Positions 1 to 61,342 of a DNA stretch of 64,000 nt are shown piece after piece. The position numbers and the translations under genes were made by a program. Source of the DNA: Octopus sinensis (taxonomy: Eukaryota); the NCBI RefSeq assembly GCF_006345805.1, contig NC_043013.1:56048001-56112000 (forward strand). The letters are read 5' to 3'. Positions within the stretch are counted from its first letter, which is position 1. Each line of letters begins with the position of its first letter. Under the pieces are notes generated by a model. The model worked only from the letters and a program-made list of their open reading frames with translations, searched no databases and was not told the origin of the DNA.

Positions 1-590
1 CGTAACCCAATGCAATTTTTCTTTTCGATTGATTTGTCTTGGAGGATAGCTGTAACTTCAGCCTCATATAAGTTTATCATGCATGACTGGCCAAGTGGGC
101 AAGCTTCAAGGTCTTGACAGTTACAACTGGGAGTGCTCTCTTGATGATTTTTGTGTTATAATGTTCATCATATTGGGGTAGCAGCTGTATGATATTTTTG
201 AGTGTCTGTTAAAAATGTTCCTGTATTTATGATTTATTGTAAAATGTTTATCTAAAAGAGACAGAAATTTCTTGCTTATGTTAGTCTTAACATTAAAAGA
301 GAAAGGAGGAGGTGAAAACAATTATTTTTACAATTCATATTTTTACTTAAACAGTTGTAATATATTTTATCTTTGAAGCTGCTAGAGCTTTATTATAGTA
401 GGGGGCTGCCTTATCAAATATTTGTTTTGAAGAAAATAGATTTGAGATCTATGTTGGCTGTCAAACTTTTAAAGACTATAAGGGGTTGACAGGACTGTTT
501 ATGTTTTAACAAGAGCTTCTCATTTAGCTTATGATACAACTTATAAAAGTAGGAGTTTAAATCTAGGGAAACATCTAAAAATATATAAAC
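1..590 (-). mobile_element. Penelope-like element fragment (RT C-terminus, linker, start of GIY-YIG endonuclease), frameshifted
   Basis: Minus-strand translations FLDVSLDLNSYFYKLYHKLNEK..., IFDKAAPYYNKALAAS, FSPPPFSFNVKTNISKKFLSLLDKHF...KISYSCYPNM, then CNCQDLEACPLGQSC...YEAEVT...CIG. These match the typical PLE thumb/linker/CxC-CP and YIG motifs. Confidence 0.85.
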
Positions 591-1103
591 ATGTGTATAT
601 ATGCATCTATACATACATACATATATATATATATACATATGTGTACATGTGCATGCACATGCATGAGTGCATGTGTGTATGTATGTATGTGTGTTTGTAT
701 GTATGTATGTATGTACATTTATACTTGTCACACTGGAATTCATGAATGAATGAAAATTATTCAAAATAATAAAATATAAGTACTTCCTTCCATTTCTCTT
801 TGTTCATGATAAGATATGTATGACATTTCAAGTCACTTCTCACATATGCAATTAGCATTCATTATCTTTTATCTAAATCTTCAAAGTGTTCAGAAATGTT
901 TTAAAAAAAGCTTTTCTTAATATTTTGCTTCCAATGCCTTTTACCTTCATCATTCAGTATTCCTCAACTTTCCCTAATTCTTTGACATTTCATTGTCTCT
1001 CTTTCCATCTGATTTAACTCCCATCAATAACATTTACAGAGCATTCAATGTGCTAAATTGTTCTTGTATACTATTGAAAACAACATGTGTATTGCAGAGG
1101 GTT

Positions 1104-1372
1104 AGCAGAATTGCTAGACTGGCAGAATTGCTAGACTGACAGAATTGCTAGATTGGCAGAATTGCAAGATCTGCAGAATTGCTTGACTGGCAGAATTGCA
1201 AGACTGGTAGATTTGCTAGATTTGCAGAACTGCAAGATTGGCAGAACTGCAAGATTTGCAGAATTGCTAGATTGACAGCATTACTAGATTTTCAGATTTT
1301 CTAGATTGGCAGAATTGCTAGATTAGCAGAATTGCTAGACTGGTAGATTTGCTAAATTGGAAGAATTGCTTG
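1104..1372 (+). repeat. 16-bp minisatellite (GGCAGAATTGCTAGAY), ~16 copies, running into a decayed SINE body (~1373-1500)
   Basis: Direct tandem repeats are visible. The downstream ggttcaaaccccactgaggtccactttgtctttc resembles the SINE bodies at 31020 and 42645. Confidence 0.85.
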
Positions 1373-2117
1373 GGCATCAAATAAAATATTTCACCACATT
1401 TCCTTTATACTTCTTAACATTCTTGGTTCAAACCCCACTGAGGTCCACTTTGTCTTTCAACTTTCCAAGATCAACAAAAGAAAGAAACAGTCAAGCACTG
1501 CAGCTGGTCTGCTCCATCATTTTCTAAAAGATGTGACATTCTCAGTCATCAATATTTTACAATCGATGCTATTGATTGATTGGCAATCAAAACATTGAAT
1601 AAAATGCCTAGCAAAGCTTTGAGAAACACCTCTTCACCTTTTCTAGTTTCAAATTCTGCCTGAAGTTGAAGAACTGGCTATCATTACAGACTTCGCTAGA
1701 ACACCTCACATTATTTGTTCTGACATTTTGTGCTTTGAGTCCAAAGTTCCACAAGGAGAACTTTACCTTTCATTTAATCAAGGTTAATAAGTAAAATAAC
1801 TGACAAGTAAAGGGGTTGGGTCTTTTCTCTTCTACTCTTTCCCCCTCTGTCTTACTCTCTCTCTTTCTCTCTCTCTCTCTCTCTGCTCTTTCAAGACGAC
1901 ACAGACTGTGGTCAGAATGGATTCCACTGGACATTAAAATTTCCAAGACATGCTGTATATACCGATGCCTCATCTATGACTCCACGAGGAATTGAAAACC
2001 CAACATCAAATCATCTTTCCTGCCAAAGTGAAGAACCAATGAAAAAACTTAGCACAGCAAAATTTAATCGATAATTTAATAGAGTCATCTGATGTAATAT
2101 CTATTATAAAGAAACCT

Positions 2118-2315
2118 CACCTGTGCCAGTGCCATGTAAAAAAAAAACACACCCCAAACACTGTGTAAAGTGGTTGGCAGCAGGAAGAGTATCCAGCTGT
2201 AGAAATGATGCTGAAGCAGGCCCTGGAGTATGGATATGGTCCTGCATCTTGTCAGAGCCTGTCAAACCATCCAACTTATGCTACGTGGGAAATAGACAAT
2301 AAATGATGATGATGG
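2118..2315 (+). mobile_element. Diverged 3' end of the RTE LINE family, with (GAT)n tail
   Basis: gtggttggc..ggaagagtatccagctgtagaaa...ccatccaacttatgcta...aaatgatgatgatg is the reverse complement of the 15491-15660 terminus. Confidence 0.7.
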
Positions 2316-2320
2316 TGATT

Positions 2321-2352
<32 letters not shown>

Positions 2353-2367
2353 GGCGGGCCACACTTT

Positions 2368-2527
2368 TTAACCCTTCTAAGCTATACCAGATCATATTGC
2401 TAAGCAGAATAAAGAGAAATTAAGAAACAAGGTTGCCATAAATGAATTGGTCCAGATATTTTCATGCAATTTTGATAGAGCCACATATATTGTCTGGTGC
2501 CAACATTATTGCAAGTGAAAGGGTTAA
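2368..2527. mobile_element. piggyBac-type MITE (TTAA-CCCTT...AAGGG-TTAA)
   Basis: TTAA at 2368 and 2524 flank short inverted termini. Confidence 0.5.
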
Positions 2528-3489
2528 AGGATGATTTAAATGCTGCAGATTTACAAATTTGATTAACAAATTGTCCATTCTCTACGAAATAATGGAAGGA
2601 ATATATAATTAACAGAATTACTAGAGGGTTGTACAATATTCTCTGTGTAAGATAATTTTAGACTTGATTTTATTGAAACTTTTATGAAAATTCCAAAGTG
2701 AAGCCAATTTATTTAGGTTCCAGTGAACCAATAAACAAAATTCAAAGTTATATTTATTCTTTTATCTTTTTCCAAATTTATGAGAAAATTTCCGCCATCT
2801 AAAGAATTCAAAATTTGATTTAAACTTATCCTTGTAAATATCAATATTAGTTAACTAAAATAAAAGCTAGAGATGTACAGCTTGAAAAACTACTCAAATT
2901 TATGTTTGACTGAGTTTGCCAACTTTGTAGTGAATGGTGTAGGAATATTTTTTGGAAATTTGCCATTGCTAAAGAAAGGAATATAATTCTAAGAAATGAT
3001 GACTTAGTTGGAAATAAAAACAGAATCAACACACTATGATAATGGAATAACAAAATAACAAACAAATAAACAAACAAAATGGTAAGGATTTCTACTACTT
3101 CAATATATTGATTATGTGTAGAACAATTAGCTCCTAAGTTGGCATGACTATAAAGTATTTTCCTTTTTCAAACAGCTTTGGCGGTTTCAAGGAAATATGT
3201 AATACAGAACCATCGAAGCCAACATAAACAAACACACAATTAAAGAAGTCGAATTAAATGCCAGTTCATTGCAACTCTCTTCTCTTTCCCTCTCAAGAGT
3301 CTGCTTTCAATAGAAATATTCTTTTTTTTCCTTTCCAAGCTTAAGCCAACATATAGACATAAGCTATAAATATTAAGAACTACTCTGGGATCATAATATT
3401 CTGATAGAATTCCGACCGAAACTAGGTCGGTTGGAACTATTTCTCTTTAAAAGGAAAACTACACTTGATTTACATTGTTACAGTGGACC

Positions 3490-6225
3490 CTTTCTCTCCA
3501 ATCAATTATTCCCTCCACCCCCTTCCTCAGCCATTTTTTCCATCTTCTCTCCTACCATTTATTCCCTCCTCCTCCTTCCTAAGCTCCTTTTTCCAACTTC
3601 TCTCCTACCACTTATTCCCTCCTCCTCCTTCCTCAGCCCCTTTTTCCAACTTCTCTCCTACCACTTATTCCATCCTTCCCCTTCCTCAGCCCCTTTTTCC
3701 AACTTCTTTCCTACCACTTATTCTCTCCTCCTCCTTCCTCAGCCCCTTTTTCCATCTTCGCTCCTACCACTTATTCCCTCCTTCCCCTTCCTCAGCCCCT
3801 TTTTCCAACTTCTCTCCTACCACTTATTCCCTCCTTCCCCTTCCTCAGCCCCTTTTTCCAACTTCTCTCCTACCACTTATTCTGTCCTTCCCCTTCCTCA
3901 GCCCCTTCTTCCAACTTCTCTCCTATCACTTATTCCCTCCTCCCTCTCCCTAGTACCTTTTCCATCTTCTCGCTTACCACTTATTCCCTCCTCTTCAAAC
4001 CTCAACCCTTTTTTCAACTTCTCTCCTACCACTTATTCCGTCATCCCCCTTCCTCAGCCCCTTTTTCCATCTCCTCTCCTACCACTTATTCCCTCCTACT
4101 TCTCCTTCTGCAGCCCCCTTTTCCAACTTTTCTCCTACCACTTATTCCCTCCTCCCCTTTTCCATCTTCTCTCCTACCACTTATTCCCTCCTCCACCTTC
4201 CTCAGCCCCTTTTTCCATCTTCTCTCCTACCACTTATTCTCTCCTCTTTTTCCAACTTCTCTTCTACCACTTATTCCTTCCTCCTCCTTCCTCAGCCCCT
4301 TTTTTAACTCTATCCTACCACATATTCCCTCCTCCTCCTTCCTCAGCCCCTTTTTCCAACTTCTCTCCTACCACTTATTCCCTCCTCCCTCTTCCTAGCA
4401 CCTTTTTCCAACTTTTCTCCTACCACTTATTCCCTCCTCCTCCTTCCACAGCCCCTTTTTCCAACTTCTCTCCGACCACTTATTCCATCCTTCCCCTTCC
4501 TCAGCCCCTTTTTCCAACTTCTCTCCTACCACTTATTCTCTCCTCCTCCTTCCTCAGCCCCTTTTTCCATCTTCGCTCCTACCACTTATTCCCTCCTTCC
4601 CCTTCCTCAGCCCCTTTTTCCAACTTCTCCCTTACCACTTATTCCATCCTTCCCCTTCCTCAGCCCCTTCTTCCAACTTCTCTCCTATCACTTATTCCCT
4701 CCTCCCTCTTCCTAGTACCTTTTTCCATCTTCTCGCTTACCACTTATTCCCTCCTCTTTAAACCTCGACCCTTTTTTCAACTTCTCTCCTAACACTTATT
4801 CCCTTCTCCTCCTTCCTCAGCCCCTTTTTCCATCTCCTCTCCTACCACTTATTCCCTCCTCCTCCTTCCTTAACCCATTTTTCCAACTTCTCTCCTACCA
4901 CTTATTCCGTCCTCCCCCTTCCTCAGCCCCTTTTTCCATCTCCTCTCTTACCACTTATTACCACCTACTTCTCCTTCTGCAGCCCCCTTTTCCAGCTTTT
5001 CTCCTACCACTTATTCCCTCCTCCCCTTTTTCCATCTTCTCTCCTACCACTTATTCCCTCCTCCACCTTCCTCAGCCCCTTTTTCCATCTTCTCTCCTAC
5101 CGCTTATTCTCTCCTCTTTTTCCAACTTCTCTCCTACCACTTATTCCCTCCTTCTCCTTCCTCAGCCCCTTTTTCCATCTTGTCTCCTACCACTTTTTCC
5201 CTCCTCCTCTTTCCTCAACCCCTTTTTCCAACTTCTATCCTACTACTTATTCTATCCTCCCCCTTCCTCAGCCCCTTTTTCCATCTCCTCTCCTACCACT
5301 TATTCCCTCCTCCTCCTTCCACAGCCCCCTTTTCCAACTTCTGTCCTACCACTTATTTCATCCCCCACCTTCCTCAGCCCCTTTTTCCATCTTCTCTCCT
5401 ACCACTTATTCACTCCTCTTTTTCCAACTTCTCTCCTACCACGTATTCCCTCCTCCCTCTTCCTCAGCCCCTTTTTCCATCTTTTCTCCTACCACTTATT
5501 CCCTCCTCCCCTTTTTCCATCTTCTCTCCTACCACTTATTCCCTCCTCCACCTTCCTCAGCCCCTTTTTCCATCTTCTCTCCTACCACTTATTCTCTCCT
5601 CTTTTTCCAACTTCTCTTCTACCACTTATTCCTTCCTCCTCCTTCCTGGGCCCCTTTTTTTAACTCTATCCTACCACATATTCCCTCCTCCTCCTTCCTC
5701 AGCCCCTTTTTCCAACTTCTCTCCTACCACTTATTCCCTCCTCCCTCTTCCTAGCACCTTTTTCCAACTTTTCTCCTACCACTTATTCCCTCTTCCTCCT
5801 TCCTCAGCCCCTTTTTCCAACTTCTCTCCTACCACTTATTCTCTCCTTCCCCTTCCTCAGCCCCTTTTTCCAACTTCTCTCCTACCACTTATTCTCTCCT
5901 GCTCCTTCCTCAGCCCCTTTTTCCATCTTCGCTCCTACCACTTATCCCCTCCTTCCCCTTCCTCAGCCCCTTTTTCCAACTTCTCTCCTACCACTTCTTC
6001 CCTCCTCCCCCTTCCTAGCCCCTTTTTTCTTCTTTTCTCCTACCACCTATTCCCTCCTCCTCCTTCCTCAGCCTCCTTTACCATCTTCTCTCCTATCATT
6101 TATTCCCTCCTCCCCCTTCGGCAGCCCCTTTTTCCCTCTTCTCTCTTCCCACTTATTCCCCCCTCCTCCTTCCTAAGCCCCCTTTTTCATCTTCTCTCCT
6201 GCCAGTTATTCCCTCCTCCTCCATC
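3490..6225 (+). repeat. Polypyrimidine minisatellite, ~53-bp unit with ~39-bp variants and higher-order duplications
   Basis: Unit ttctctcctaccacttattccctcctcctccttcctcagcccctttttccaac (3598-3650). The plus strand has almost no G. Confidence 0.95.
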
Positions 6226-6784
6226 CTATCTCCCGAAACCCATATCTCCCGTCAGTCACACCCCTATCCATGTTCGTCAATCACTACATTCACCTCTAAC
6301 CATATATTACTCTTCACTCTCACTCTTCCGCAGTTGCCTAACCATCACTCATGATCCTTTCTCCTTATTCTCCCTTAAATACATCGTACCTTGTTTTAAC
6401 TTGAATATACATTAAGCTGACATGCCATCACCACCCCATTTGTCTCTCTTGTCGGCTACTTCTATCCACCCTTAAACAGCACAGGGTAGTCATGTACCCT
6501 CTTGCACAATAAGATACCAGTCCCTGTCCCCTGGTCAAATTTTAGCCTCTCAACATCTGGCATAAAGCTACTTCTCTCTATAAAATCTACCCACTCAGCC
6601 CAGGGGTTTTTTCACTTTGGTGACGCTTTTACTTTGGGACTTCACCAGAGTTTGTACCCACAAAAGGGTGACCCGTACACTCTGCAAAATAGAATCCAGC
6701 CATGGAAGCTACGACACAGGAAACAATGGAGCTTGATATAGTCATGATGATCTGTCCAGCGCATGCCAGCAGGGAAGACAGATG

Positions 6785-6823
<39 letters not shown>

Positions 6824-6824
6824 T

Positions 6825-7327
6825 ATCGCCATACTAATATGGCAGTCTATAAATATAAGACTAAAGCTGTCACCAATTAGCTCCAGGAGGCCATTGCCTC
6901 CAGCTAGCTATATGACACACGAACCTGCGTCCATTACAACCTTCGAACAGGGAAGGTCAGCTGCTTCACCGTGCTAGTCAGACATCTGCAGACATGTTTC
7001 ATGGTTGTTGCCCTTTATCAATGCAGCGTAGTCAGAACCAGCGGGTGTTGCTACTGATCGTCTATTCGAAGATTTTATTTACCTAGTTACAGTGGAATAC
7101 ATCCACTTGTTTTCAATAATAGAAATATTAAAATTACTAAGTTCGAAGGTTGTAATGGACGCAGGTTCGTATATCATATAGCTAGAGGCGATGGCCTCTT
7201 GGAGCTAATCAGCCACAGCTTTAGTCTTATAGTTATAGACTGCCATATTAGTATGGCGATAACTATTAATATCCAGTAACGCTGCCGTAATCTCCTTTAG
7301 AGAGACTTAGTAATTTTAATATTTCTA
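6825..7327 (-). mobile_element. Fold-back ribozyme-bearing element (Penelope pLTR / retrozyme-like) between (TA)n tracts
   Basis: Inverted pairs 6825-6948/7141-7260 and 7120-7141/7306-7327. A hammerhead motif lies in the spacer. Confidence 0.75.
6986..7026 (-). ncRNA. Type I hammerhead ribozyme, U3-A8 core variant
   Basis: Minus strand: ctgca TTGATAA agggcaacaaccat GAAA catg TC tgcag. Stem I is ctgca/tgcag, stem III is the palindrome ACATGT, and stem II is imperfect. Confidence 0.6.
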
Positions 7328-7383
<56 letters not shown>

Positions 7384-8029
7384 GTATGTATGTATGTAGT
7401 AAAATTGACAGAAAGAGCCCAGTGAAGTTGGAATGGAGACTGGAAAATCCAAAGTTTCAGAGTCGTTCTTCAGAGAATTTTTGACAAAAGAGAGATGAAG
7501 GAGAGACAACAGATGCTTATATGTTTTCTGAGTTCTGATAACTGGTTGCAATTCCCATGCACACACACACACACACACGCACATATATGCATATGTATAT
7601 ATATATGTATATAGTACATAGTAAGATAGTGGTTATGAGGGTAACCCACTATGGGATATCAGTTATCCAATATACTGCTGGTGAAGCACCCATAAGGCAA
7701 ATACATAAATGCTTATAATTGCAATGCAATTAATTCATTTATTGTATTGGATATATATATATATATTTATATATATATATAGATAGATAGATATAGTGTA
7801 CATGTATGTGTGTGTGCATGTGTGTGTAGGCACGTATGTGTGTGCATATACACACATAGAAGTGCACACACACACACATGACAGGCCTCTGAATGGTCTC
7901 CTCTACTTGTACTTGCAAAGCAATTGTTGAGGCCAGGTGTATAGTATTAGACATTTGCCCAGGGTGCTTAAGGTATCCTATAACAGGATCGGGTGGGCAT
8001 GTTAAGCTAGAGGTGAGGAGTTAAAACTG

Positions 8030-8235
8030 ACACACAAGTTGGATGTTGTGGGATTTGAACTCAGAATAGACAGAAGTGAAACAAATACCATAAGACATGT
8101 GATCCTATGCCTTAACAAAGCAACCAGATAGCCACCTTAGATTGGATGTTTATTTATTGACCCTGAGTGGGGGAAAGGCAATATTGACAGCAGTTGGATT
8201 TGAACTTTGAAAGCAAGGAACTGCAGTAAATGTTG
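8030..8235 (-). mobile_element. Two decayed tRNA-derived SINE heads
   Basis: Reverse B-box motifs ggatttgaactcagaa (~8051) and ggatttgaactttgaa (~8196). Confidence 0.5.
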
Positions 8236-9709
8236 AGATGTATTTTGTCTCAGCAGTATTTCTGTTGGATGAAGAACAGATTGAAATAAAATCTGGAGGA
8301 ACTGAAGGGATATTAGAGGAATTTTTGAATTGATAGGAGAGGAGATGGGTTTGAGATTGATGATGGTGGATTGGAGGAAAGCTGAAGGAAATTGCCATCT
8401 CTATGTTAGAAATTGGTACTTAAAGATGGAATGGAATCTGTAAAAGGGAATTTCTTCAGAGAGGAATGACTGTAAAGCAAACACTTGATACAGAGGTAAT
8501 GATGATGACAAAAGGGAAATAACAATTTAGAGACTTAAATGACCTGAAAATAGAGATCAGAATTAGAAACCAGTAACAATGACAAATTTGAACTTCCATT
8601 CAAAACATTCTAAGGTAGTCTTAGGCAAGACCCATTATTTTATTGTTATAATTTGCTGAGCTAAGTATAAGCACTGCTAATGCTTCACAGTTGAATTATT
8701 GATATTAAGAAAACCCAATCTGCTGTGAAATCATGTGTTCCAATTTTTAGCAAAATTTCTGAAACTCTTCACATACACCAACATTAGAAATTCAATAGGA
8801 GAAAAATGAAAAAGAAAACAACACAAAAAACAAATTTAAAAAAATGAAAAAGAAAACAGGAAACAAATTTTTTAAAAAATGGAATTTCTCATAGAATTTC
8901 TAGTAAGCAAAAATATCTTGAATATTGTAATTAGCATTTATGGAAATTAGGCTCTCGTTTAGTAATGTAAAAATAACAATAAGCAGCAAATAAGAGAATA
9001 AAGGCTTAAAGAAAAAAAAGGGAAAAAATATAAAATATAGAAAAGAGCTGAAGACAGGACCAAGAGAAAAATAAATAGGAAAGAAAAGAATAAAAGAGAT
9101 GAGAGGATGGATTTGTGAAATTGGTAAAAAGTGAAGTTTATAGTGTGTTAAGGCTTGTGATTTAGTGTCTATAAAAGGAAATTACTGGAAATTGAGAGAA
9201 AAACCATGAAATTAGAATGAATCAACAATAGGCAATTAATAAAGAAACCTTATAGGATAATATGTGTGTGTGTATTGTTTGTTGTTGTTTATTGTTAAAA
9301 GATGAGGAGGAGGAGGAGGAGGAGGGGGAGAAATGGTTTTATCAAATGGAAGTTTTTAAATGCTGTAAACATCTGAGATGAAAATGAATAAAAGAAAAGA
9401 GAGATTAAAAAAGAACAAAATGAATGGAAGACTAAAAGAAAACAAACAAATAAAATATTGTATTTAAATTTAGAAGCTCAATGGGTAGGAGACTAAATAC
9501 CACCAGGTATCTATTGCCAGCTCACTCTTTTGTTCTTGTCAATGATGATGGTGGTGATGGTGACGGGGAATGATAATCAGGACAATGGCAACAACGACAA
9601 CAACAATCACATATAGACATTGTTACTATTTTCAGTATATATACATACATCTACATATATGTGCGTGTATATGTGTATATATATGACTATATCTATATCT
9701 ACATATCTG

Positions 9710-9747
<38 letters not shown>

Positions 9748-9750
<3 letters not shown>

Positions 9751-10012
9751 CAACGATTTGCCTCACCACACACCGAATTTAGAAATAGCAGTCAAAAAGT
9801 TTTGGCTATTCTTTCTACTTTTAAGAAGAAAGAATAGCCAAAACTTTTTGACTGCTATTTCTAAATTCGGTGTGTGGTGAGGCAAATCGTTGCTAAACCC
9901 TCAATTACTTAGTATTACTTAAACCTTCCTTGAATGGGTCTTTTACATGCCGAACTCTACTTGGAGAAATTAATGATTATTTCTAAATTAATTAATTTCA
10001 CCCTTTATTATT
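9748..10012. mobile_element. Fold-back element with a perfect 69-bp inverted repeat, inserted in (TA)n
   Basis: 9748-9816 is the exact reverse complement of 9827-9895, with a 10-nt loop. A unique tail runs to ~10012 and TA tracts lie on both sides. Confidence 0.75.
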
Positions 10013-10101
10013 GATATATATATATATATACATACATATACCTATACATATACATGCATACATACATACATATATATATATATACACATGCATATATATG
10101 T

Positions 10102-10134
<33 letters not shown>

Positions 10135-10432
10135 GATAGATAGATGTATAGATAAATAGATAGATAGATACATATTGATATTAATTTGATTATAGGAGAT
10201 CCATAAAGGATCAAGCCGTATCAAAATAGAGCACGCCACACTTATTGGCTAGACAGAATGACGCAAATCGGAGAGTTAAGTAGTCTGTTATCGTAGCATA
10301 GAATGCCTTGATGAAGGGAAGTTCAGCTGCTTGGTAATCCACAACTCTAATTGTATCCAGAATTATCCAAAGATGAAAGGAAACTTAATACGGTGGCAGA
10401 AAGCATAATAATAGTAGACAAATTGGATATTT

Positions 10433-10562
10433 GGTAATGTTACAATTGTTTCATTAAAAGTTTTTATTGCAATGTAAATATAGTACTGTCAGGTATGCGT
10501 TATGCACAATGTCAATAAGAATCTGTAATATGTTATGCAACTCTCAACTCATCAGGATTACC
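10433..10562 (-). ncRNA. Type I hammerhead ribozyme with long stem II
   Basis: Minus strand: ggtaatc CTGATGA gttgagagtt...aacttttaat GAAA caattg TA acattacc. Stem II base is 10 bp including G-U, stem III is the palindrome ACAATTGT, and stem I is ggtaat/attacc with a proximal mismatch. Confidence 0.7.
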
Positions 10563-10674
10563 AAGTGAGCAATGACATGTTGATCAATCAACAGATGAAC
10601 AAGGACTTCTAATCAGAATGAACATCACTAATGAGGTCACCATGTCTATATACATACGCACATACATACATATA

Positions 10675-10810
10675 TCACCTTGATCACCTTGACTGACCAG
10701 TCCGTCAGGCATCCATTTGACACCGCTGGTCACAGCACGCTGTCCACTCCTCTCTGGATCGCGCCTTTCTCATCTACGTGATCCCAGTCATCCTCCTGAA
10801 ATCGTAACTC
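10675..10810 (-). mobile_element. 3' end fragment of a LINE (RTE-like)
   Basis: Minus strand encodes ...RKARSREEWTACCDQR... and ends in a tandem tcaaggtga tail. Confidence 0.4.
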
Positions 10811-10989
10811 TATCTATCTACCTATACACACACACACACACACCCACACATATACATATATATACATGTATATATGTATGAACTCCTGAAACATACATAT
10901 ATACATGTATATATATGTATATGTGTGTATAGGTAGATAGATAGATAGATAGACGACAAACAGACAGACAGATAGATAGATAAATAGAT

Positions 10990-11200
10990 ATGAGTGATTC
11001 TGAAAAGTTCCTGGCTTTGGGTAAAAGAAAATATGGGTGAATCAGTTAATTATGATTTTATTCTACATATTCCCTTCTCACTTATCGTAGTGGTCATTCA
11101 GTTTTTTTTTAAGTTCTGTAAAAGGACTTGGAAAGTTAGGCCTCCAACCAGGCCTTTCATGATACCCTTAAAGCCAGGAACTTTTCAACATTCCCTCATG
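10990..11200. mobile_element. mariner-derived MITE
   Basis: TIRs tgag..tgaaaagttcctggcttt and aaagccaggaacttttca..ccctca. Confidence 0.7.
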
Positions 11201-11499
11201 TGTGTGTGTGTGTGTGTATGCTGTGAAATGCGACACATAACCAAAGTGTAGTCTGAGTTGTATGTCCCACACTCCACCCCTGTATCCAGCACAGGACGAT
11301 GTAGCAACCTTCAGCATAGCCTTGTATTTGGAATATGATCCATTTGATAGGATCAATAAAATACAGAAAACCCACAACCTTTATAAAACTGGCATTTCAG
11401 CAAATTACTGCCCAAGACGACATATTTGCTTGCTCAAATATTATATAATCCTGTTAATTCACCACTTGGGTGTTTAGTAAAAAAATACAATAGCTGGTA

Positions 11500-11962
11500 T
11501 CAACCATTTAGAATTTAAACCAACTATATCCAGTAATAGCATGTTGTCAACTTAATGTGACAGTCCTATGAAAGGGAAGAATGCTACTGTTATTTAGCCC
11601 TAGGAAACACCGTTTCCTGTTGGACTTGACACATTTCCGACGGCTAAATAATAGTAGTATTCTTCCCTTTCATGGGACTGTCACATTAAGTTGACAACAT
11701 GCTACCACTTTATCTTGCTGCTATTGCATAAATCTCTCTGAGAGATTTAGAAATATATTATATCCAACTATATCCAGCCCAGATATTTTGCCTTTCAAGC
11801 CAGCCTGATCTGGCCTCTCACATCTACCCTGCAATGTCATTCAAAGACTAAGCAGTCACATCATTGAAATATTTAAGCTATAAGATAAAGCTGAATGAAT
11901 TCAAAACAATGTGAGTAAATGAGCCTTGCATTTGATAGAGTAACCTGAATGCTAAAGAGTTA
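11500..11962. mobile_element. MITE-like host element interrupted by an insertion
   Basis: Imperfect inverted termini aaccatttagaatt and aatgctaaagagtt. Confidence 0.45.
11534..11763. mobile_element. 230-bp fold-back insertion with a 14-bp target-site duplication
   Basis: ccaactatatccag occurs at 11520-11533 and 11764-11777. Inverted arms are ~11537-11599 and ~11642-11704. Confidence 0.8.
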
Positions 11963-12100
11963 GATACAAATTCTCAACAACATTCTCTGAGGCCCATTGT
12001 GGATACCTAAGGTTACAGGTAGTAACCTGCAATCCACATAATTCCTACCAAGAATAAGACCAAACCTGAGGCACATCAAGACAACAACAACAATAATAAT

Positions 12101-12503
12101 AAATGCCCTGATGCAGTACCAGGCAGTGGCTCTCATTTTCTTGAAGTCAATTAGCCCATCCCACACAAAAGGTCCCTAATAAGGGTTGTTTAAGGATGTT
12201 GAATGAAACACCCATGTTTCCAGAGGTGAATTATCCAAAACCCAAAGAATCCCTCTCAACACATGGCTATGATGCTTCCCCACTACTTCTGCTCGTGATC
12301 AGAGATGCACATACCATCAGCCACTAAGGGACATGCTCAACTGATTAAGGCCAAACAACTGACAAGCAAATCTGTGGTATTGAGCAGAATACTTGCTGTA
12401 GCCCATCTTTTATACCAAGACAAAACAATGTACATGATAACACTTCCAATCAGTTAAGATCAGAAGCCATGAAAGCCACTGCCTGGTACTGCATCAGGGC
12501 ATT
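12101..12503. mobile_element. ~400-bp element with ~35-bp terminal inverted repeats, in trinucleotide microsatellite context
   Basis: aaatgccctgatgcagtaccaggcagtggctctcat and atgaaagccactgcctggtactgcatcagggcattt. Confidence 0.7.
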
Positions 12504-12549
12504 TACCCTCCTCCTCATCATCATCGTCGTCGTCGTCGTCATCATCATC

Positions 12550-14045
12550 ATTATTATTGTATTAAAACTCAGAGCTTATTTTGCTGGGTATGATGGAAAG
12601 CGTCAGCTGTCCAAAGCCAGCAGACTAAAGTGACAATTGTTTACAGGTCATGCTTCAAGAACCCTGCAAAGAATTCTTGCAGTTCCAAGCAATGCTAATT
12701 TTTGTAGGTGTTCTACCTTCACACTGGCACCAATCTTTTGCAGCCATGTTGGTAGTTGAGGGCTAATACTTCCAAGTGCACCATTTACTATTGCTATCAC
12801 GTCTACTCTCTTCATTGACCACCAGTCTTCGTATTTCCCACTTCAAATCATCATAGTGGTTTATTTTTTCTTCTTCTTTCTCTTTGATCCTGTTGTCACC
12901 AGAACATGCTCTGTTGATTATCATGCATGTTCTTTCTCTTTTATTAACCACAACAATGTCCGGTTTCCGATGTTTAGTCAGGTGATCACACTGGATCATT
13001 ACATCCCACAGGATTTTGCAATTCTCATTTTCGGTGACTCCTTCTGGGGCTTTTTCCTACCATGTCTTTGCTTTTTGTAGGCCATGATTTCCTCAGAGCT
13101 CCCAATGGAACTCTTGCCACATTGTCATGGTATCTTTTCTTGTGCCAATTTCAGGCATTCACAAACAATGTGTCATACCATTTCACACCACTCACCATAA
13201 CATTCTGCATTTGTCTCTATTAGTAGTGTTGTCTATTCTGCACTTCATATAGTTGGTCCTTAATGCTTGTTCCTGAGCTGTGCATATGAATGCTTCTGTC
13301 TCTATCTTCAGGTCACTCTTCCTCATCCTTAGCCACCAGTCCTCTGCATCTGTCTTGGCATATCTGATCATACATTTGTTTTCCTTCCATGCTTCTTCTA
13401 TTTTTTTTTGTTCATTTCTTGTTTAAATTTTTCTTTATTTACACAATTTTCAGTTTTGATGATGTTGGCCTTCTTTGTGTATTTCAACAGTGGCTCCACT
13501 GCATTTTTTATATACCATTCTAGGCTGTTTTTCTCTGCTTCGACACAGTCCTGGCAGCTGATCCAACCCCTTCCACCCTTTCTTCTGGACATATCAGTGT
13601 TACTCTTAGGGTGGGCGACTCCGTATACTGTCAACGTTTTTTCTGGTCTTGGTATCTATTTTTTTCACTTCTGTCTTTTGCCATTTTATAATTCCTGCTC
13701 CATACCGAAGTAATGCTATCACCCACATATTAATTAATTGTTCGATAATTCTATCCCTGCTAGGGACTCTACCCTGCCTCTTTTTAGGTAGATTATTCCA
13801 CACTTTTTGAGTCCATATTCCATTCTAATGCCAGTACTAAAACAGTGAACTGTGTTCACCAAGAAACTCACTCATGTCTCATCTTTGCCATACAATTTCA
13901 AATCATCCATGAAGAGGAGGTGGTTGATTGTTTGGGATTGTCCCTTTAGTTGGTACCCCAGGTTCATTTTCCTAAGTACTAAGGCCAGGGGTATCATTCA
14001 GAGAACAAAAAGCAATGGAGATAGGCTATCACCCTAGGAAAGATA
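12550..14045 (-). mobile_element. R4/Dong-like non-LTR retrotransposon, 5'-truncated and decayed (RT, CCHC, restriction-like endonuclease)
   Basis: GDSLSPLLFVL and INHLLFMDDLKLY (RT, ~13880-14035); CRM...HIVCEC knuckle (~13150-13210); RKPDIVVVNK...EEEKINHYDDLKWEIRRL (PD..D RLE). Confidence 0.85.
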
Positions 14046-16022: not shown

Positions 16023-19000
16023 TCACTGGTCTTGCCGGGTCTTCTCACGCACAGCATACTTCCATAGGTCTCGGTCTCTAGTCATTTCCTTGGTGAGACC
16101 TAAAGTTCGAAAGTCGTGCTTCACTACCTCGTCCTAGGTTTTCCTGGGTCTACCTCTTCAACAGGTTCCCTCAACTGCTAGAGTGTGGCACTTTTGCACA
16201 CAACTATCTTCACCCATTCTCGCCACATGACCATACCAGTGCAGTCGTCTCTCTTGCACACCACAACTGATGCTTCTTAGGTTCAACTTTTTTCTCAAGG
16301 TACTTACACTCTGTCCATTATGAACACTGACATTACACATCCATCGGAGCATACTGGCTTCATTTCTTGCGAGCTTACGCATATCCTCAGCAGTCACAGC
16401 CTATGTTTCACTACCATGTAGCATGGCTGTACGTACACATGCATCATACAGTCTGCCTTTTACTCTGAGCGAGAGGCCTTTTGTCACCAGCAGGGGTAAG
16501 AGATCTCTAAACTTTGCCCAGGCTATTCTTACTCTAGCAGTTACACTTTCAGCACACCCACCCCCGCTACTGACTTGGTCACCTAGGTAGCGGAAGCTAT
16601 CAACTACTAGTTTTTCTCCCTGGAACATGGTAGACGTTGGTCTCTGCACATTTCCAGTGTTTATTGCTCCTGAGCATCTGCCACAGACAAAAACTATTTT
16701 CCTAGTTAGCCTTCCTTTGACATTACTACACCTCTTATGTGTCCATAGCTTGCACTTGGTGCACCTTATAGAGTTTCTACCTATGCCTTTACTACAGATC
16801 GAGCGGGGTCATCTACCTGAAGGCGTTTGTGACTTGTCTACTTTCCTACTTATTAGGACTTTGGTTTTGGCTAGATTGATTCTGAGGCCTTTCGATTCTA
16901 GACCTTGCTTCCACACCTGAAACTTCTCCTCCAGTTCAGATAGTGACTCAGCAATTAGAGCAAGGTCATCAGCATAGAGGAGCTCCCAGGGGCATCCTGT
17001 CTTGAATTCCTCCATTATTGCCTGGAGGACTATGATAAATAGGAGGGGACTGAGGACTGAACGTTGGTGGACCCCAACCTCTACCCGGAATTCTTCACTG
17101 TACTCATTGCCAACCCTCACCTTACTCGCAGCGTCTCTGTACATGGCTCACACAGCTCTAACTAACCATTCATCTATCCCTAGTTTCCTCATTGACCACC
17201 AGATAAGGGATCGGGGAACCCTGTCAAAGGCTTTCTCCATGTCAACAAAAGCCAGGTACAGGGGCTTATCTTTGGCTAGGTATTTCTCCTGCAGCTGTCT
17301 TACCAGGAATATAGCATCAGTAGTACTTCTCCCTGGCACGAACCTAAACTGCATCTCATCTAAGCTAATTCTCTCTCTAATTAGTTGGGCTATAACCCTC
17401 TCCGTAACCTTCATTACCTGATCCAGCAGCTTGATACCCCTGTAGTTATTTGTATCTAGGGCATCACCTTTACCTTTGTAGCAGCTGACTATTATGCTGC
17501 TACACCAGTCATTGGGTATGACTCCTTCGTGTGTCACCTGGTTAACTATACGGATGGCCAGGCTAATGCCGACAGTGCCAGATATTTTGAGGATCTCTGC
17601 AGTAATACCTGATGGGCCAGGGGCTTTCCCTGTTTTCATGCCTGTAATTGCCTTAACTACTAAAGAACTGTCAAATCGGATTGCTGATCCCTCTGTTGGG
17701 TCGACATTCGGCAGACTCTCTTTATCCCATTCATTTTCTTTATTCAGCAACCTTTCATAGTGGCGTCTCCAAACCTCTCTCTTTGCATCCTCATTTAGCG
17801 CAAGTGAACCGTCATCCTCGCGAACACATTTCTCTCTTACTACGTCACGATTCTCTCTCACACACTGTCTTGCAACACGAAATACCTCAAGTCTTTCATC
17901 CTCCTGGTGCAGGACATTGGCAAATTTTTTCTTATCTGCTTCCCCTCTGGCTAAATACACCTGCCTCCTAGCTTCCCTTCTGGCAGTCTGATACACTTCC
18001 CTGCTACCACCATTCTTCCAGTCCTTCCAAGCCTGTTTCTTTTGTCTAATAGCCCTGTCAACAATATTGTTCCACCACCACGTTATTTTGGGTCTTGAGG
18101 GGACTTTGCACCAGCCACAGATCTGGTCGGTGGCTTTCAGCAGGTTGTCCCTTAGAAGCGTCCAGTTGTCTTCTACCCCATGTGTAGCTATACCCCCTTC
18201 TATTTCGTCAAAGGCTTCAAGTAACATCTCTCTAAATCTCTGTCCATTTGCAGGATCTTTAAGCTTCCAGATCCTTCTTCTCCATATTTGTCGTCTTCTG
18301 GTTGTCCTCCTAGTCCTGATCCTAAAGTCACTAACTACCAGTCTATGTTGTGGTGTACATTCTTCGCCTGGGAAGGTTTTGGCATTTATAAGCAGCCTTC
18401 TTTCCCTTTTTCTGGCAAGGATGTAGTCGATTTGACTAGTATTCCGGCCCGATCGGTAGGTGACCAGGTGGCTTGTCGGTTTCCTGAAGTTAGTGTTGCA
18501 AACCATAAGACTATTCGCATCGCAGAACTCCAGCAGCCTGGTTCCCTCCTCGTTGCGGGAACCATAACCGTAGCCTCCATGCACGCCATGGAAGCCCCCA
18601 GCACATCGTCCAACATGCCCATTGAAGTCACCAACCACAAAGAGAAGGTCCCTGTCGTTCGTCAATGATGTGGTCTGCAGTAGGGTGTCATAGAAACAGT
18701 CTTTCTGTCCATCAGGTAGCCCTGGCTGAGGGGCATAGGCCGATATAATAGTTGCTAAACTATGATGGAGCACTAATCTAATCTTAATTATTCTGTCACA
18801 TACTCTGACTACCTCGATTACCTTATCTACCCATTTTTCGGCGATAAGCATGCCTACACCCCCGACCCCGTCAGTATTCCCAGCCCAGAAAATCTTGTAC
18901 CTCTGTCCTTTGCCTGTGAGGAACCTAGCAGAACCTCCTCTCCACCTCACTTCTTGAATGCAGCATACATCAACACACCTCCGTTCAAGCAATTCAACGA

Positions 19001-19100
19001 TCTCGCCAGATCTGCCTTTCAGTGTGCCAACGTTGAGGGTGCCAACCCTGAGGGTGGGGGTGGCGTAAGACTTGAAGTGTATCTTGCAATGAATGACCAC
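16023..19100 (-). pseudogene. RTE ORF (APE-RT-PHD-like finger) broken by a few stops and frameshifts
   Basis: ORF-track pieces 17148-19100, 16809-17144, 16401-16649 and 16158-16397 are collinear. The TGA at 17148 corresponds to an Arg codon (CGG) in the 52.9-kb copy. Confidence 0.9.
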
Positions 19101-20222
19101 TACCTTTTATGGTAGGGGGTGAGGGAGGCGTAAGACTTTGAAGTGTACAAGGAAGACAAGGATGAGAAAATTTAGGACTTCCTGTACCGGTGGAGGTTGC
19201 ACCGCGAAAACCGGCAGCCATTCCTTTCTTAGGAGAGAAATAGTTATTAGTACGCAAAAACCGGCAGCCATTCCTTTCTTAGGAGAGAAATAGTTATTAG
19301 TAGGTATAAATACCTAAATTTGAGAGAGAGGTATTTTGCCTAATCTATGGGAGAAGCGTGAGCGATAAAGAGCTATAAGTTATAAATACATTTATTCTAT
19401 ATCTACGAGGCATGAGGCTGATCGATAAAATTAGGGGCGAGCTATAAGATTAAATATATATTTAACACAAGACATGAGACAACGAAATATAATTAAAATG
19501 AACTATAGAATTATATGTACATATAAAAACACGAGGCGTGAGGCTGAATTACACAAGTCATAACAATAATAATAGAGATAAAACAGGGCTAACTAAAAGA
19601 TCAGATCAATTGCAGATAGATAGGTAGGTACGGGATGAAATTAAATTTAGATTGCTTAACTTGGATTCATTTTTCGTAGGAAGTCGGCAACAGTTTGAAT
19701 TCAAGTGGGGCCGTTATTAATCAGTCGCTGGTTTATATGCATATAGGGTGGTGGAGAAGGGGAGTCGAATGGCGATCGAAAGAGATAGAAGAGGAACGAG
19801 AGGGGGGGGGGTCGTGGCCTGCGAAAACCAGCAGCCATTCCTTTGTTAGGAGAGAAATAGTTATTAGTAGGTATAAATACCTAAATTTGAGAGAGAGGTA
19901 TTTTGCCTAATCTATGGGAGAAGCATGAGCGATAAAGAGTGTTTAATATGAGCTTAAAATGTCACCCTTAAAAGATCATTTGTTTTGCTAGAAATAACAG
20001 TGAAATCCCATTAACACTACACTCTTCTATATCCTGGAAAACATATCTCTGAGTAAAACATGGGTTGGTCATGGGTGGAATGTTCATGATCATATAGCTG
20101 TGAGAACAGGAGTGACCTGGGGCTAAATAATATGAACTGACATGAGAGACAGGTGCCTCTTATGATATTCCTGTCATTCAATGACTGATTGTACCATGCA
20201 TATCTATATCTATCTATCTATC

Positions 20223-31235: not shown

Positions 31236-31329
31236 AATTGTTAGCTTGCTGGACAAAAGCAAATTGTGACAGGTGATGAGAAATAGATTATCTACCAAAA
31301 TGTTCAGAGAAAGCAATCCTGGAGTAAGC

Positions 31330-31915
31330 GACATGAGCCACCCTTAGCCAACCCAAAAGCGGATCTTCACCCTAAAAAAGTCTTGCTTTGTGTCTGGTGG
31401 GATTGGAAAGGAATTCTGTACTATGAGCTTCTCCCAAATAACCAGATAATTGATTCTGAGAAATACTGCACACAACTGGACGAGTTAAAAGCAATTCAAG
31501 AGAAACGTCCAGAATTGGCCGACAGGAAGGGTGTTGTTTTCCAACATGATAATGCAAGACCACATGTTCCTTTGGGAACCAGGCAAAAGTTGCTGCAGCT
31601 TGGCTGGGATGTGTTACCCCACCCTCCATATTCACCAGATATTGCCCCTTCGGATTTCCACTCATTCAGGTCTCTGCAGAATAGTCTTAATGGTAAAAAT
31701 TTCAATTCCTTGGATGACGCAAAAAGATACCTGAATTCTTTGCCATAAAACCACCGCAATTCTGGGAAGAGGGTATTTTCAAGTTGAAGAAAAGATGGAG
31801 ACGCATTGTGCAACAAAATGGTTCATATTTGGTTGATTAAAAATGTAATGGCAAGTATCTATTGACCTTTTTCTTTCCTTTAAAAATCGGCACAAACTTT
31901 CCGGACAACCCAATA
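31330..31915 (+). mobile_element. mariner (DD34D) transposase 3' half with right TIR
   Basis: LCVWWDWKGILYYELL...QHDNARPH...HPPYSPDIAPSDFHSFRSL. TIR cggcacaaactttccggacaacccaa is followed by TA. Confidence 0.92.
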
Positions 31916-37368: not shown

Positions 37369-40300
37369 GACCTAGAAATACCTGGTATGGTGCCCAGGCG
37401 CACAGAAAGCCTACCAGGGTGGATCAGACCCTTTAGTGCTGACTCTCACAACTGATCTAGGAGACGGAACACTCTTACAAGAAAATCCTGCGATCGTTTT
37501 ATCATCTGACGTGTGGCACACCGTGCACCTGTACAGACCATGTTAATTCGATGGAGAGAGTGTGCTTTGTTCAGCACAAGCAATGACCACTTTAAACAAG
37601 TCAAAGTGCCGGTTGTTCAGTAAACCACTTTCACTCAATAACACCCGAGGTTTGGAGCATCGATGTTTATTTTTTTCTTTATTAAATCCTATGGCGATGA
37701 TGGGATTGTGACGGGAAGAGGTGAAGGATGTCACTGGTAGTTCCTAACATGAACATTGCACATTGGTGGTAGAAGGTAGGTGGCCGTTTTGCACAACACC
37801 TGCAAGTAATTGTGTGACTCGTGTCCTCCTTTCATAACAAAGCAGCCCTTTTTAGGATGGCACTGCTTTCCTCTTCATGGGGAGGGGTCTATAAAAGATG
37901 ACCTAAACATTGCTTGCTTGCTCTTGTCCCTGTCATCAGGTGCAGATGTCTGGGCATCCAATATTGCACCCAAATCAAAAGTAGAAAGAAAATACATGGA
38001 ACAAATATGTTCATTGTGTCTTGGAATGTGAGAACACTCTAAGATAACGTAAAGAACCCTGAACGAAGAACCGCTATCATAGCACGTGTGTTGAAGCATC
38101 ATAGAATTGGTTTTGCAGCTCTTTCCAAAACCAGGTTTGCTGATACAGGACAGTTAGAGGAAGTTGAGGGTGGGTACACTTTCTATTGGATAGGAAAAGC
38201 AAGTTCTGAGAAACGTGAATCTGGTGTTGGTTTTGCCATCAGAAGTGATATTGCCAAAAATCTTGACTCCCTGCCTGTTGATATAAATGACAGACTTATG
38301 TTCTTGCGCGTTGCAGTTGGAAAAGACAAATATGCCACATTTTTGAGTTGCTAAGCACCTACACTTAATTCATCTGATGAGCTAAAAGAAAGTTTTTACT
38401 CCTCTTTACGTGAACAGATTAACAAGGTGTCGAGTCAAGATAAGCTGTTTGTCTTAGGTGACTTCAATGCTCGTGTAGGTAGTGATACACAATCTTGGAG
38501 CAACGTCATTGGTCCACACGGAATTGGTAAAGTCAACTCAAACAGTGTTCTCTTATTCTCTCTTTGCAGTGAGTTTGATCTTCTGCTCACTTTCAGCTAC
38601 CTAATTGCAAGAAAGCCAGTTGGAAGCATCCCCGGTCAACTCATTACTATCTCATTGACTATGTCATTGTACATCGTTCTGATCGACAAGATGTAAGTCT
38701 TACACGCTCTTACAATATAGGGAAATGTTGGTCAGATCACAAATTAATCTGCTCCAAAATCAAGATGAAAATCAAACGCCCTGTTCGAAATCAACGTAGT
38801 TCTCTCATCATGAGAATTGATGTGGACAAGTTGAAGGTTAAGGAGATCTTGCAGGCGTTTCAAACGGTTACTGACGAAAAGCTGTCCTCCATTATATGTG
38901 GGAATGACATTGAGGCATCTTGGTCAGAGTTTAAAACTGCAGTGTGACTCTGCCAATGAGTCATTAGGATATGTTCGAAGGAAGAGCCAAGATTGGTTTG
39001 ATGAAAATGATCCAACCATCCTCCCTTTGCTCAGTAACATGCATCAAACCCATCATGTGTGGATTACTGACAAAAATTCTTCAGTGAAACACAAGGCTTT
39101 TCGAATGGCCAAAAAGTAGGCACAATCTCGGCTCCGGGAAATGAAACAAAACTGGTGGAAGTTGAAAGCCCAGGCCTTACAAGATGCAGCAGATAAGTGC
39201 GATTTTAAATCTTTCTACCAAAATCTCAAAGGTGTGTTTGGTTCCATCTCAAAGGGCGCATCTCCAATATTTTTGTCAGAGGGCACTCTCCTAACCGATA
39301 AGAAAGAGATTACTAAGTGCTGGGCTGAACATTTTTCAATGCTTTAAACAGAGAATCGACAGTGGATCAGGAAGTGATTGATAATCTTCCTCAGAATCTT
39401 GCTGACAGTCCATCCATGTCGGAGGTCGAAAAGGCTATAAAGCAATTGTCAAATGGTAAGGCTCCAGGTGATGATGGGATACCTGCAGAAATATACAAAT
39501 GTGGAAGCCAACTGCTAATAAGGAAACTAAGTGCTCTGTTTTCATCAATATGGGAACTTGGTACCATGCCACAACAGTTCAAAGATGCTTCAATTATTCA
39601 CCTATTTAAGCACAAAGGAAATAGATGTGAGAGTGTGATAACCATAGAGGAATTTCTCTTAAGATTCTAGTGCGTGTAATCTTAAACAGACTCAATGATT
39701 CAATTTGTAAAACTGTGCTCCCAGAAACCCAATGTGGTTTCTGGTCTGGAAGAGGCACTGTGGATATGAGCTTCAGTTTACGGCAACTACAAGAGAAAGC
39801 AAGGGAACAGAATAAGGACTTGTTTGTTACCTTTATTGATCTCACTAAGGCATTTGATACCGTCTCCAGGGATGCCCTGTGGACTGTTTTGAGGAAGCTT
39901 AGTTTTCCAGACAAGATGTAGAACGTGATTGTCTCCTTTCATCATGGAATGATGGCATCAGTACGGTCTGACTGCGAACAAAGTGAACCATTCGAAGTGT
40001 CAAATGGAGCCAAGCAAGGATGTGTCCTTGCTCCGATCCTATTTGCTCTTTTCTTTTCAGTGATGCTTGAAACAGCCTTCAAAGACACCTCAGAAGGTGT
40101 AGGTGTTGAGTATCGATCAGCAGCAGTTCAAAGCCAAAACCCGGACTTTTGTGCAGACTGTTCTTGATCTCCTTTTTGCTGATGACTGTGCTCTTGTCAC
40201 CCATAGTCTTGAGGACATGCAGAACATCCTCAATAGCTTCTCTGATGCATGTAAGGCCTTTGGTCTTACAATTAGCCTAACGAAAACTGAACTTATTCAC

Positions 40301-41254
40301 CAGCCGAAACCAAACTCTTTGCCCTCTTCACAACCAGTGGTATATGTTGATGGTAAAGCTTTGAAAACAATATCTTCTTTTACATACCTCGGCTCTATTG
40401 TGTCTGATGATGCAAAATTTGAAAAAGATATCCAAAACAGAATCAGTAAAGCAAGTGAAGCATTTGGTAGGTTGTGACACAGACTCTGGAACAGCCATGA
40501 TGTGTCTCTGAAATTAAAAGTAGCCCGCTACAAATCTGTTGTTTTATCTACTCTTCTGTATGGTGCCGAAACATGGTCCTTGTATCGCAAGCATATCAAT
40601 CAGCTTGATTCCTTCCATATGAGATGCCTGCGTTCTATTTGCAACTTTAAATGGCAAGATCATGTTCGAAATAGTGAGTTACTGGAGAGGTGTGAGATCA
40701 CTGGTATTGAAACATTTTTGATTAAGATACAAATGCGGTGGTCTGGTTATCTCACAAGAATGGATGACTCAAGAGTTCCAAAGCAGCTTTTTTATGGGCA
40801 ATTGACAAATTCTTCCCGTCCAACAGGGCGTCCTCTTCTTCGTTACAAGGACAAACTAAAAGACAATCTGAGGCGTTGTGAGCTCCTGGGAGAGTGCAGC
40901 AGGAGATCGCAGCAAATGGAGGAAAATGTGTTTTCTAAAGACTAGAGAATTTGAAAGTAACCGCCTTCATCATAGGGACGCCCTTCGTGCAAATTTGAAA
41001 GCAATGCATCAGCAAAATCCACCAAACAATGACTGCGTGTGTCACTGTGGGTTCAAAGCACGAAGCAAAGCTGGGTTAGCTGTCCACTTGAGAAGACATT
41101 TTGAACCAATGAATACATGCAAGTGTACCATTTGCGAGAAGGTGTGCAAGGCATCTGCTGGATTGAAGGTACACATGTAGTGTCACAAGGCTTAGGAATT
41201 GTTCAAGGTTATTTACTGAACCCTCATTCATCATCTTCGATGAGAGAATCCACC
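37369..41254 (+). mobile_element. Full-length decayed RTE (BovB-like) LINE with 12-bp TSD and C-terminal C2H2-like fingers
   Basis: WNVRTL/ERRTA..AALS.TR (APE), GDFNARVG, FIDLTKAFDTV, KQGCVLAP, LFADDCAL, CHCG..HLRRH and CTICEKVC..H. atatacagagag occurs at 37357-37368 and 41255-41266. Confidence 0.92.
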
Positions 41255-45468: not shown

Positions 45469-46061
45469 GGTAGCAAAAAATCACACAAGTAAAAATGATG
45501 TAACTCCTTGTTTTTAAAAGTAGAAACTTGGGGTTTATGTAAAATATTTTGTATAATATAAATATAAATAAATAAATGGAGTTAAACACAGGTGTTATTC
45601 AAATTCTTTTACTTCCGACACATGTTTCGAAGATATCACTGGTATTGTTCCAAAGTTATATACTTCTCATTTTTTGTTTTTCTTTCCTTTATCCCTCCTC
45701 TTTCTATAGGCTACTTTTGATATTATATCCTATATCGTTTCTTTGAAACAAACTTAATAGCGTTCAGTTAATCACTATACATATCCATCATTTTCAGTTA
45801 AAATGTCTTATTGACGAGTTTCATTTCTTCACTTCCCTGAAGAGAAGATTACGTTGTTTTACACCATTTTATTCCTTTGTAATAATATCAGTGAAATCTT
45901 CAAAACATTTGTCGAAAGTAAAAGAATTTGAATAACACCTGTGTTTAACTCCATTTATTTCTATATATATATTATACAAAATATTTCACGTAAACCCAAA
46001 GTTTCTACCTTTAAAAACAAGGAGTTACAACCTTTTTACTTGTGTGATCTTTTTTGCTACC
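45469..46061 (+). mobile_element. Fold-back ribozyme-bearing element
   Basis: ~185-bp diverged inverted arms 45469-45655 and 45875-46061. Confidence 0.78.
45831..45919 (+). ncRNA. Type I hammerhead with G12->A lesion
   Basis: acttcc CTGAAGA gaagatt...aatcttc AAAA catttg TC gaaagt. The inverted arm (45611-45634, minus) keeps the intact atcttc GAAA catgtg TC ggaagt. Confidence 0.7.
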
Positions 46062-59731: not shown

Positions 59732-59769
<38 letters not shown>

Positions 59770-60238: not shown

Positions 60239-60285
<47 letters not shown>

Positions 60286-60488
60286 GTTTGTCTGTCTGTC
60301 TATCTATACAGTAATTGTACATATTTGTGTGTGTATGTGTATATCCATGTGTGTGTGTTTGTATGTACATATCTATATATACATACACACACAGATACAT
60401 GCAAGCATATGAGTATAAATGTATGTACATAAGTGCATACATATGTGTATGTAATATATATATGTGTATATCTATATATCTATATATC

Positions 60489-60585
<97 letters not shown>

Positions 60586-60594
60586 TATATTTAT

Positions 60595-61284: not shown

Positions 61285-61342
<58 letters not shown>

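Follow-up and report, generated by a model that had tools for sequence, protein, structure and literature searches.

A decayed copy of a 362-nt hammerhead repeat in Octopus sinensis, inserted head to head in (TA)n, probably by Penelope-type machinery

Introduction

Insertions of Penelope-type elements (PLEs) are described as carrying an inverted, 5′-truncated copy and, optionally, a tail of 30–40 bp, with (TA)n as the target (PMC8557442, PMC3846280). In the case of PAc, the protein cleaves both strands of its target and extends each of them, and copying begins at two sites inside the RNA, between which the tail lies. Insertion is normal when the ribozyme is mutated, the substrate is mainly RNA that has not been cut, and RNA-seq gives no reads terminating at the cleavage site (PMC11167929). 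Animal retrozymes, small units with a hammerhead ribozyme, have been framed as non-autonomous PLE derivatives (bioRxiv 10.64898/2026.07.22.740005). That survey is mainly of vertebrates, and its main text names neither ‘tail’ nor ‘octopus’. In the Schistosoma Cercyon PLE hammerheads, a U3-A8 pair has been published as a covariation (PMC4209133). Retrozymes of the PLE-derived kind are thus already known from other animals; the open-access literature yielded no description of a cephalopod retrozyme or of an octopus hammerhead family, and a cephalopod family is an addition to them.

Here we describe such a family from one insertion in a 64,000-nt stretch of the Octopus sinensis genome (hereafter the window), which is AT-rich animal DNA with microsatellites.

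Results

An interleaved inverted element built from a 362-nt unit

The element spans 6824–7327 and is bounded on each side by (TA)n. Self-BLAST resolves two inverted pairs: A (6824–6948) with A′ (7141–7261), at 89.6% identity over 125 columns (E 2e-42), and B (7120–7142) with B′ (7305–7327), identical at 23 of 23 positions (E 2e-8). Exact inverted matches reach 30 nt, whereas in 200 shuffles the longest match averaged 9.7 nt and never exceeded 20 nt. B and A′ overlap by 2 nt (7141–7142), and the order A-x-B-A′-y-B′ given in the preliminary description is borne out. Read on the ribozyme strand, the element consists of a left arm, B-x-A, of 319 nt on the minus strand and a right arm, A′-y-B′, of 187 nt on the plus strand. 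The features are as follows.

6786–6823, no strand: left (TA)n target tract; no TSD is definable
6824–7142, minus: left arm, inverted and 5′-truncated, unit positions 1–319 (B, x with the hammerhead, A); from self-BLAST and folding
6824–6948, minus: segment A, the copy belonging to the left arm; from self-BLAST
6986–7026, minus: predicted type I hammerhead; from descriptor, folds and family states
7120–7142, minus: segment B, at which the left arm is 5′-truncated, 23 nt beyond end site 2 round the unit; from self-BLAST
7141–7142, no strand: head-to-head junction of the arms, with 2-nt microhomology; from self-BLAST
7141–7327, plus: right arm, 5′-truncated, unit positions 195–385 (A′, y, B′), without hammerhead; from self-BLAST
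7242–7257, plus: hairpin that directly precedes end site 1 and is retained by both arms; from folds
7268–7272, plus: end site 1, a stop followed by (AT)n in many other copies
7273–7327, plus: 55-nt tail from end site 1 to end site 2 (7327), resembling the optional PLE tail
7331–7376, no strand: right (TA)n target tract; from sequence

Joining the segments through B′ gives a unit of 125 + 43 + 23 + 171 = 362 nt, in agreement with the roughly 360 nt (about 120 + 45 + 22 + 171) estimated before. The unit has a GC content of 0.41, its longest ATG frame is 30 aa and it holds no ORF. A and A′ differ by nine substitutions and one 4-nt indel. The left arm (6824–7142) folds more strongly as the minus strand (z of −4.87) than as the plus strand (−3.15), and the hairpin at 7242–7257 is a candidate recognition element for the inserting enzyme.

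A type I hammerhead with a U3-A8 core

The minus strand of segment x carries a type I hammerhead motif at 7026–6986. Stem I (5 bp) pairs 7026–7022 with 6990–6986; the core at 7021–7015 reads UUGAUAA, with a U3-A8 pair in place of C3-G8; stem II (4 bp) pairs 7014–7011 with 7004–7001 around a 6-nt loop (7010–7005); GAAA lies at 7000–6997, and stem III is a 2-bp palindrome. Cleavage is predicted between 6991 and 6990. The minus-strand hammerhead announced in the preliminary description is therefore present as a motif at 7026–6986, with the qualification that its core is U3-A8 and that a mismatch at base 7002 breaks stem II.

That mismatch is private to the copy at 6824–7327: in family contigs from four runs the pairing base accounts for 99.6–100% of depth. 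Across 742, 262, 49 and 2 contigs of at least 80% identity in the four runs, which bear three organism labels, neither the core nor stems I and III contain a position that varies at 20% or more; divergent forms lie outside the scope of this alignment. The only other variants within the ribozyme affect two bases of loop 2, turning it into CAAAUA at 36–61% of depth in the three deeper runs, which we take to be the loop 2 sequence that canonical type I hammerheads of animals have. U3 and A8 might have been read as decay of a single copy, a reading rejected because the same states form the family majority in the four runs; the U3-A8 core is the family state. The copy at 6824–7327, with its one damaged ribozyme, is likely dead.

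The descriptor used for the motif was composed after the motif had been seen, and it matches 2 of 5,000 dinucleotide shuffles of the element and three places in the whole window. Rfam, at two thresholds, reported no hammerhead match at the element. The minimal hammerheads of Schistosoma Cercyon share the covaried U3-A8 pair and the 5-bp stem I, but their stem II has 7–8 bp instead of 4 bp, and here the ribozyme sits in a small closed unit (PMC4209133). Within the open-access literature, that Schistosoma PLE description is the only place where we found a U3-A8 core.

A high-copy repeat family with a self-closing unit

Part of the element occurs in 20 of 24 listed public runs, under four organism labels. 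In three DNA-like runs, the summed contig depth is about 1e4–1e6 over the element and 25–115 over its left flank; these sums are not copy numbers, and the run types (DNA-like or RNA) are guesses. Since the depth over the element far exceeds that of the flank, we regard the element as a high-copy repeat.

Other copies show the closure of a unit of about 360 nt through the shared B′, as had been proposed. Behind 7142, loose contig ends match y in reverse complement (run X2, 12 contigs, agreement 0.59; run X3, 4 contigs, agreement 0.68), one contig of run X4 links 7140 to 7306 across strands, and contig pieces bridge A-x and A′-y. The family is thus a high-copy, ORF-less, closed 362-nt unit with a predicted U3-A8 type I hammerhead.

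Segment x of the present copy differs from the family majority at about 9–11 of 171 sites (about 5–6%). Of the nine A/A′ substitutions, about four in each arm depart from the majority and one site is mixed, with 7171 judged from the loose-end consensus. Such an even split between the arms fits decay after insertion. The comparison of A with A′ as a test of one versus two templates was accordingly set aside as undiscriminating, the departures being split as post-insertion decay predicts.

Loose ends also reveal another subfamily, in which the block of roughly 26 nt at 7211–7237 and 6850–6876 is different; both arms at the locus share one block. A 26-nt pattern had no match in metagenome or viral contigs. 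The 119 metagenome loci matching a 17-nt pattern were dismissed as chance, none aligning over more than 24 nt. Contigs from runs X10 and X19 (245 aligned; one of 358 nt) do not count here towards expression or a circle, the RNA type of these runs being a guess.

With a type I hammerhead and a non-coding unit inside the range of about 170–400 nt and below 45% GC, the element fits the sequence criteria for metazoan retrozymes, and the size class of metazoan non-LTR retrozymes assigned earlier agrees with the 362-nt length, the GC content and the hammerhead shape. The closest match in form is the set of non-LTR retrozymes of Mytilus, of 350–390 bp (PMC7229834), with which it shares an ORF-less unit of low GC (<45%), a type I hammerhead with a 4-bp stem II and a short palindromic stem III, and a strongly self-paired RNA. 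It differs from them in its U3-A8 core, in its one damaged ribozyme and in forming two truncated inverted arms rather than a tandem array (PMC7229834). By the rule that an active retrozyme has two consecutive complete ribozymes (bioRxiv 10.64898/2026.07.22.740005), this copy, with one hammerhead and a stem II mismatch, falls outside, a verdict on the copy and not on the family. The retrozymes of that survey are alike in their proposed reliance on PLE machinery.

We considered whether the arms could instead derive, as truncated pieces, from the pLTR of an autonomous PLE with an ORF, the 362-nt unit being no more than pLTR plus tail. Truncated PLEs with U3-A8 cores and opposite-strand hammerhead pairs have been described (PMC4209133), and two contigs in which A′ is preceded by some 970 nt that do not align would accord with such an origin. 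However, in this copy and in others the tail passes directly into the hammerhead segment, so that an ORF would have no space between them; the longest ATG frame of the element is 30 aa, and the search of the surroundings returned no RT or GIY-YIG Pfam domain in the 107 frames scanned (from 1–3500, 6200–12500 and 57500–64000, the low-complexity 3500–6200 being left out). We therefore rate the pLTR origin as very improbable. The two contigs themselves, of about 1.1 kb and low depth (runs X1 and X4), have an A′ ending at end site 1, and what lies upstream may be flanking host DNA, a partner PLE or some element that had inserted into the unit.

A short-motif search, a weak test, of the octopus Naiad and Hydra consensus sequences in the PMC8557442 supplement gave no match readable as related, and no sequence in the accessible PMC13282606 supplement matched two motifs of the element. 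The preliminary description had set a Penelope pLTR apart from a retrozyme as a separate source. These are not clean alternatives, animal retrozymes having been published as non-autonomous PLE derivatives, and the choice between retrozyme and PLE is largely a false one.

Two end sites and variable junctions in a (TA)n target

A stop at 7268–7272 followed by (AT)n recurs in 26 contigs of X1, 34 of X2 and 27 of X4. The left arm has its 3′ end at this site (end site 1) or up to about 10 nt short of it, and the right arm extends 55 nt past it to end site 2 at 7327, a site known from this locus alone, as the family tally left out 7322–7450. Measured from the predicted cut, end site 1 lies about 178 nt and end site 2 about 233 nt further on, and at such distances the ribozyme does not set the ends.

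Two of the marks of a PLE insertion are thus seen at the locus. The arms are inverted, 5′-truncated and head to head, with junctions that vary elsewhere, and (TA)n adjoins both flanks, as does (AT)n at the site 1 ends in three runs. The tail between the two ends measures 55 nt, against the 30–40 nt published for PLEs. EN+ PLEs (Penelope/Poseidon, Neptune, Hydra and Naiad) share with the element the inverted, 5′-truncated head-to-head copy, the TA-microsatellite target and ends away from the ribozyme cut, and their optional tail on one arm and two end sites have putative counterparts in it; they differ from it in that the element has no ORF and a tail of 55 nt in place of 30–40 (PMC8557442, PMC3846280, PMC11167929). 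Judged by its sequence, the element appears to work like a non-autonomous element mobilised by a PLE, while fitting the sequence criteria of metazoan non-LTR retrozymes.

Among the 15 best-supported of 47 joints, 10 pair a left-arm with a right-arm position, at differing places; each is carried by one or two contigs at a depth of 31–140, mostly with short sides of 21–30 nt. We read these left-right joints as probable further head-to-head insertions. Clusters of junctions near 6927–6958, 7113–7142 and 7236–7254 were discarded as evidence, because the same bins are the best covered and the tally comprises best-supported rows only.

The variability of the joints bears on a further reading, in which the element would be a MITE or another TIR DNA element, or a chance DNA rearrangement. 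Long inverted repeats and TA flanks are what such an origin would leave; on the other hand, the repeats are interleaved rather than terminal, and one strand bears a conserved ribozyme. Because junction points differ among copies, we discount a MITE, and this whole class of explanations is exceedingly improbable. Copies with fixed MITE-like ends, or copies always beside a PLE ORF, had been named in advance as the outcome that would speak against a retrozyme-like source; that outcome did not arise, and the joints found here vary.

Template and route of insertion

The preliminary description pictured one inversion of a single terminally redundant monomer. The locus is better read as two arms whose 3′ ends point outward into (TA)n, each at either of two sites. 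On balance we favour, with only modest confidence, the view that the element is a copy, decayed by about 5%, of a 362-nt hammerhead repeat that was inserted head to head in (TA)n by a Penelope-type RT-endonuclease, probably from an RNA circle. Tandem copies elsewhere would be transcribed, self-cleaved and ligated into circles. A PLE protein, by analogy with the PAc enzyme, would cut both strands of the (TA)n target, and each target end may then prime cDNA synthesis at one of the two internal sites, 178 or 233 nt past the cut, where the arms are seen to end. The left arm as it stands would represent 319 nt copied through an intact ribozyme junction and the right arm 187 nt. The two cDNA ends would finally unite through the 2-nt microhomology visible at the junction. 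The PLE enzyme, the two-ended priming and the RNA template are what we infer from this geometry. L1-type twin priming was set aside, as there is no poly(A) and segments of 125 nt and 23 nt are each present twice.

Because the left arm runs unbroken across the cut site, it cannot have been copied from a cut linear monomer, whereas either a circle or an uncut multimer would serve as its template. To this extent the claim that the insertion was copied from a tandem or circular RNA holds: the span across the cut site needs one or the other. Between the two, we incline towards a circle as the template of the left arm. A cut monomer would yield at most 233 nt and could never rebuild the unit, yet the ribozyme is conserved; in addition, mussel units of 350–390 bp accumulate mainly as circles (PMC7229834). 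The use of uncut RNA by PAc argues in the opposite direction, favouring an uncut multimer.

It is possible, though rather unlikely, that the same family and the same kind of PLE enzyme copied a linear transcript that came from a tandem array, had stayed uncut and covered positions 1–385 (1.06 units or more), or two such transcripts, with no circle involved. PAc takes unprocessed RNA and needs no ribozyme cleavage in vitro (PMC11167929), a short stem III makes for poor cleavage of monomeric hammerheads (PMC4209133), and the geometry of the locus fits a linear template equally well. What would be hard to explain under a linear template is the constancy of the ribozyme stems and paired core in four runs and three organism labels, if cutting merely destroyed templates.

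A further question is whether both target ends were primed at all. A single cDNA could have given rise to the inversion if it primed itself, folded back or underwent a template jump, a mechanism of the kind proposed for rotifer Penelope head-to-head repeats with palindromes at their junctions (PMC3846280), and the single subfamily block common to both arms fits a single template. The junction of the present element, however, is not palindromic, its arms begin at unit positions 1 and 195, and they end at two different sites, each adjoining (TA)n. We hold an origin from one cDNA to be improbable and retain priming at both target ends.

Within two-ended priming from a circle, a more specific version can be put forward tentatively, and we regard it as doubtful. 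In it, a single RNA circle of 362 nt would have served both arms at the same time: a dimer of the PLE enzyme, primed by the two cut target strands, would have begun at both start sites, one for each strand, with the left arm rounding the circle through the re-ligated U3-A8 junction and halting 23 nt past the start site of the other enzyme.

Other features of the window

A second, unrelated hammerhead element at 60590–61284 lies in (TA)n and has the same interleaved inverted layout, with A at 60582–60704 and A′ at 61050–61172 (98%), and B at 60798–60903 and B′ at 61180–61284 (99%). Its type I hammerhead (plus strand, 60972–61019) has a canonical core and a stem III like that of Hydra PLEs. Its end sites are about 111 nt apart, and its left arm is without the ribozyme segment. 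The interleaved layout is therefore not unique even in the window.

Long inverted pairs occur at 45469–46061 (90%) and 46401–47178 (91–96%), the latter between TA-rich tracts. The descriptor identifies no hammerhead in either, and they are possibly Naiad-type or MITE insertions. About 3500–6250 is taken up by a long minisatellite, rich in pyrimidines and extremely strand-skewed, that repeats about every 53 nt. On the plus strand, 12349–12630 gives a weak synaptobrevin-like transmembrane match (E 1.5e-4, below the Pfam cut-off) and is possibly an exon. Judging by eye, we take the frames at 16400–19106, 38043–41180, 53507–55511 and 63007–63787 to be fragments of RTE-type LINE endonuclease/RT, and the frame at 31287–31748 to be a mariner transposase fragment.

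Discussion

In the accessible literature, the copying of animal retrozymes into DNA, with circles as templates, is proposed rather than demonstrated. The copy at 6824–7327 is old and weak material in this respect, and younger copies, including the unrelated element at 60590–61284, are better suited. A family that combines a PLE footprint with a conserved U3-A8 ribozyme gives concrete end sites and a junction with which the template can be tested. If both arms were indeed copied together from a single circle, such insertions would be a genomic record of two-ended retrotransposition templated by circRNA.
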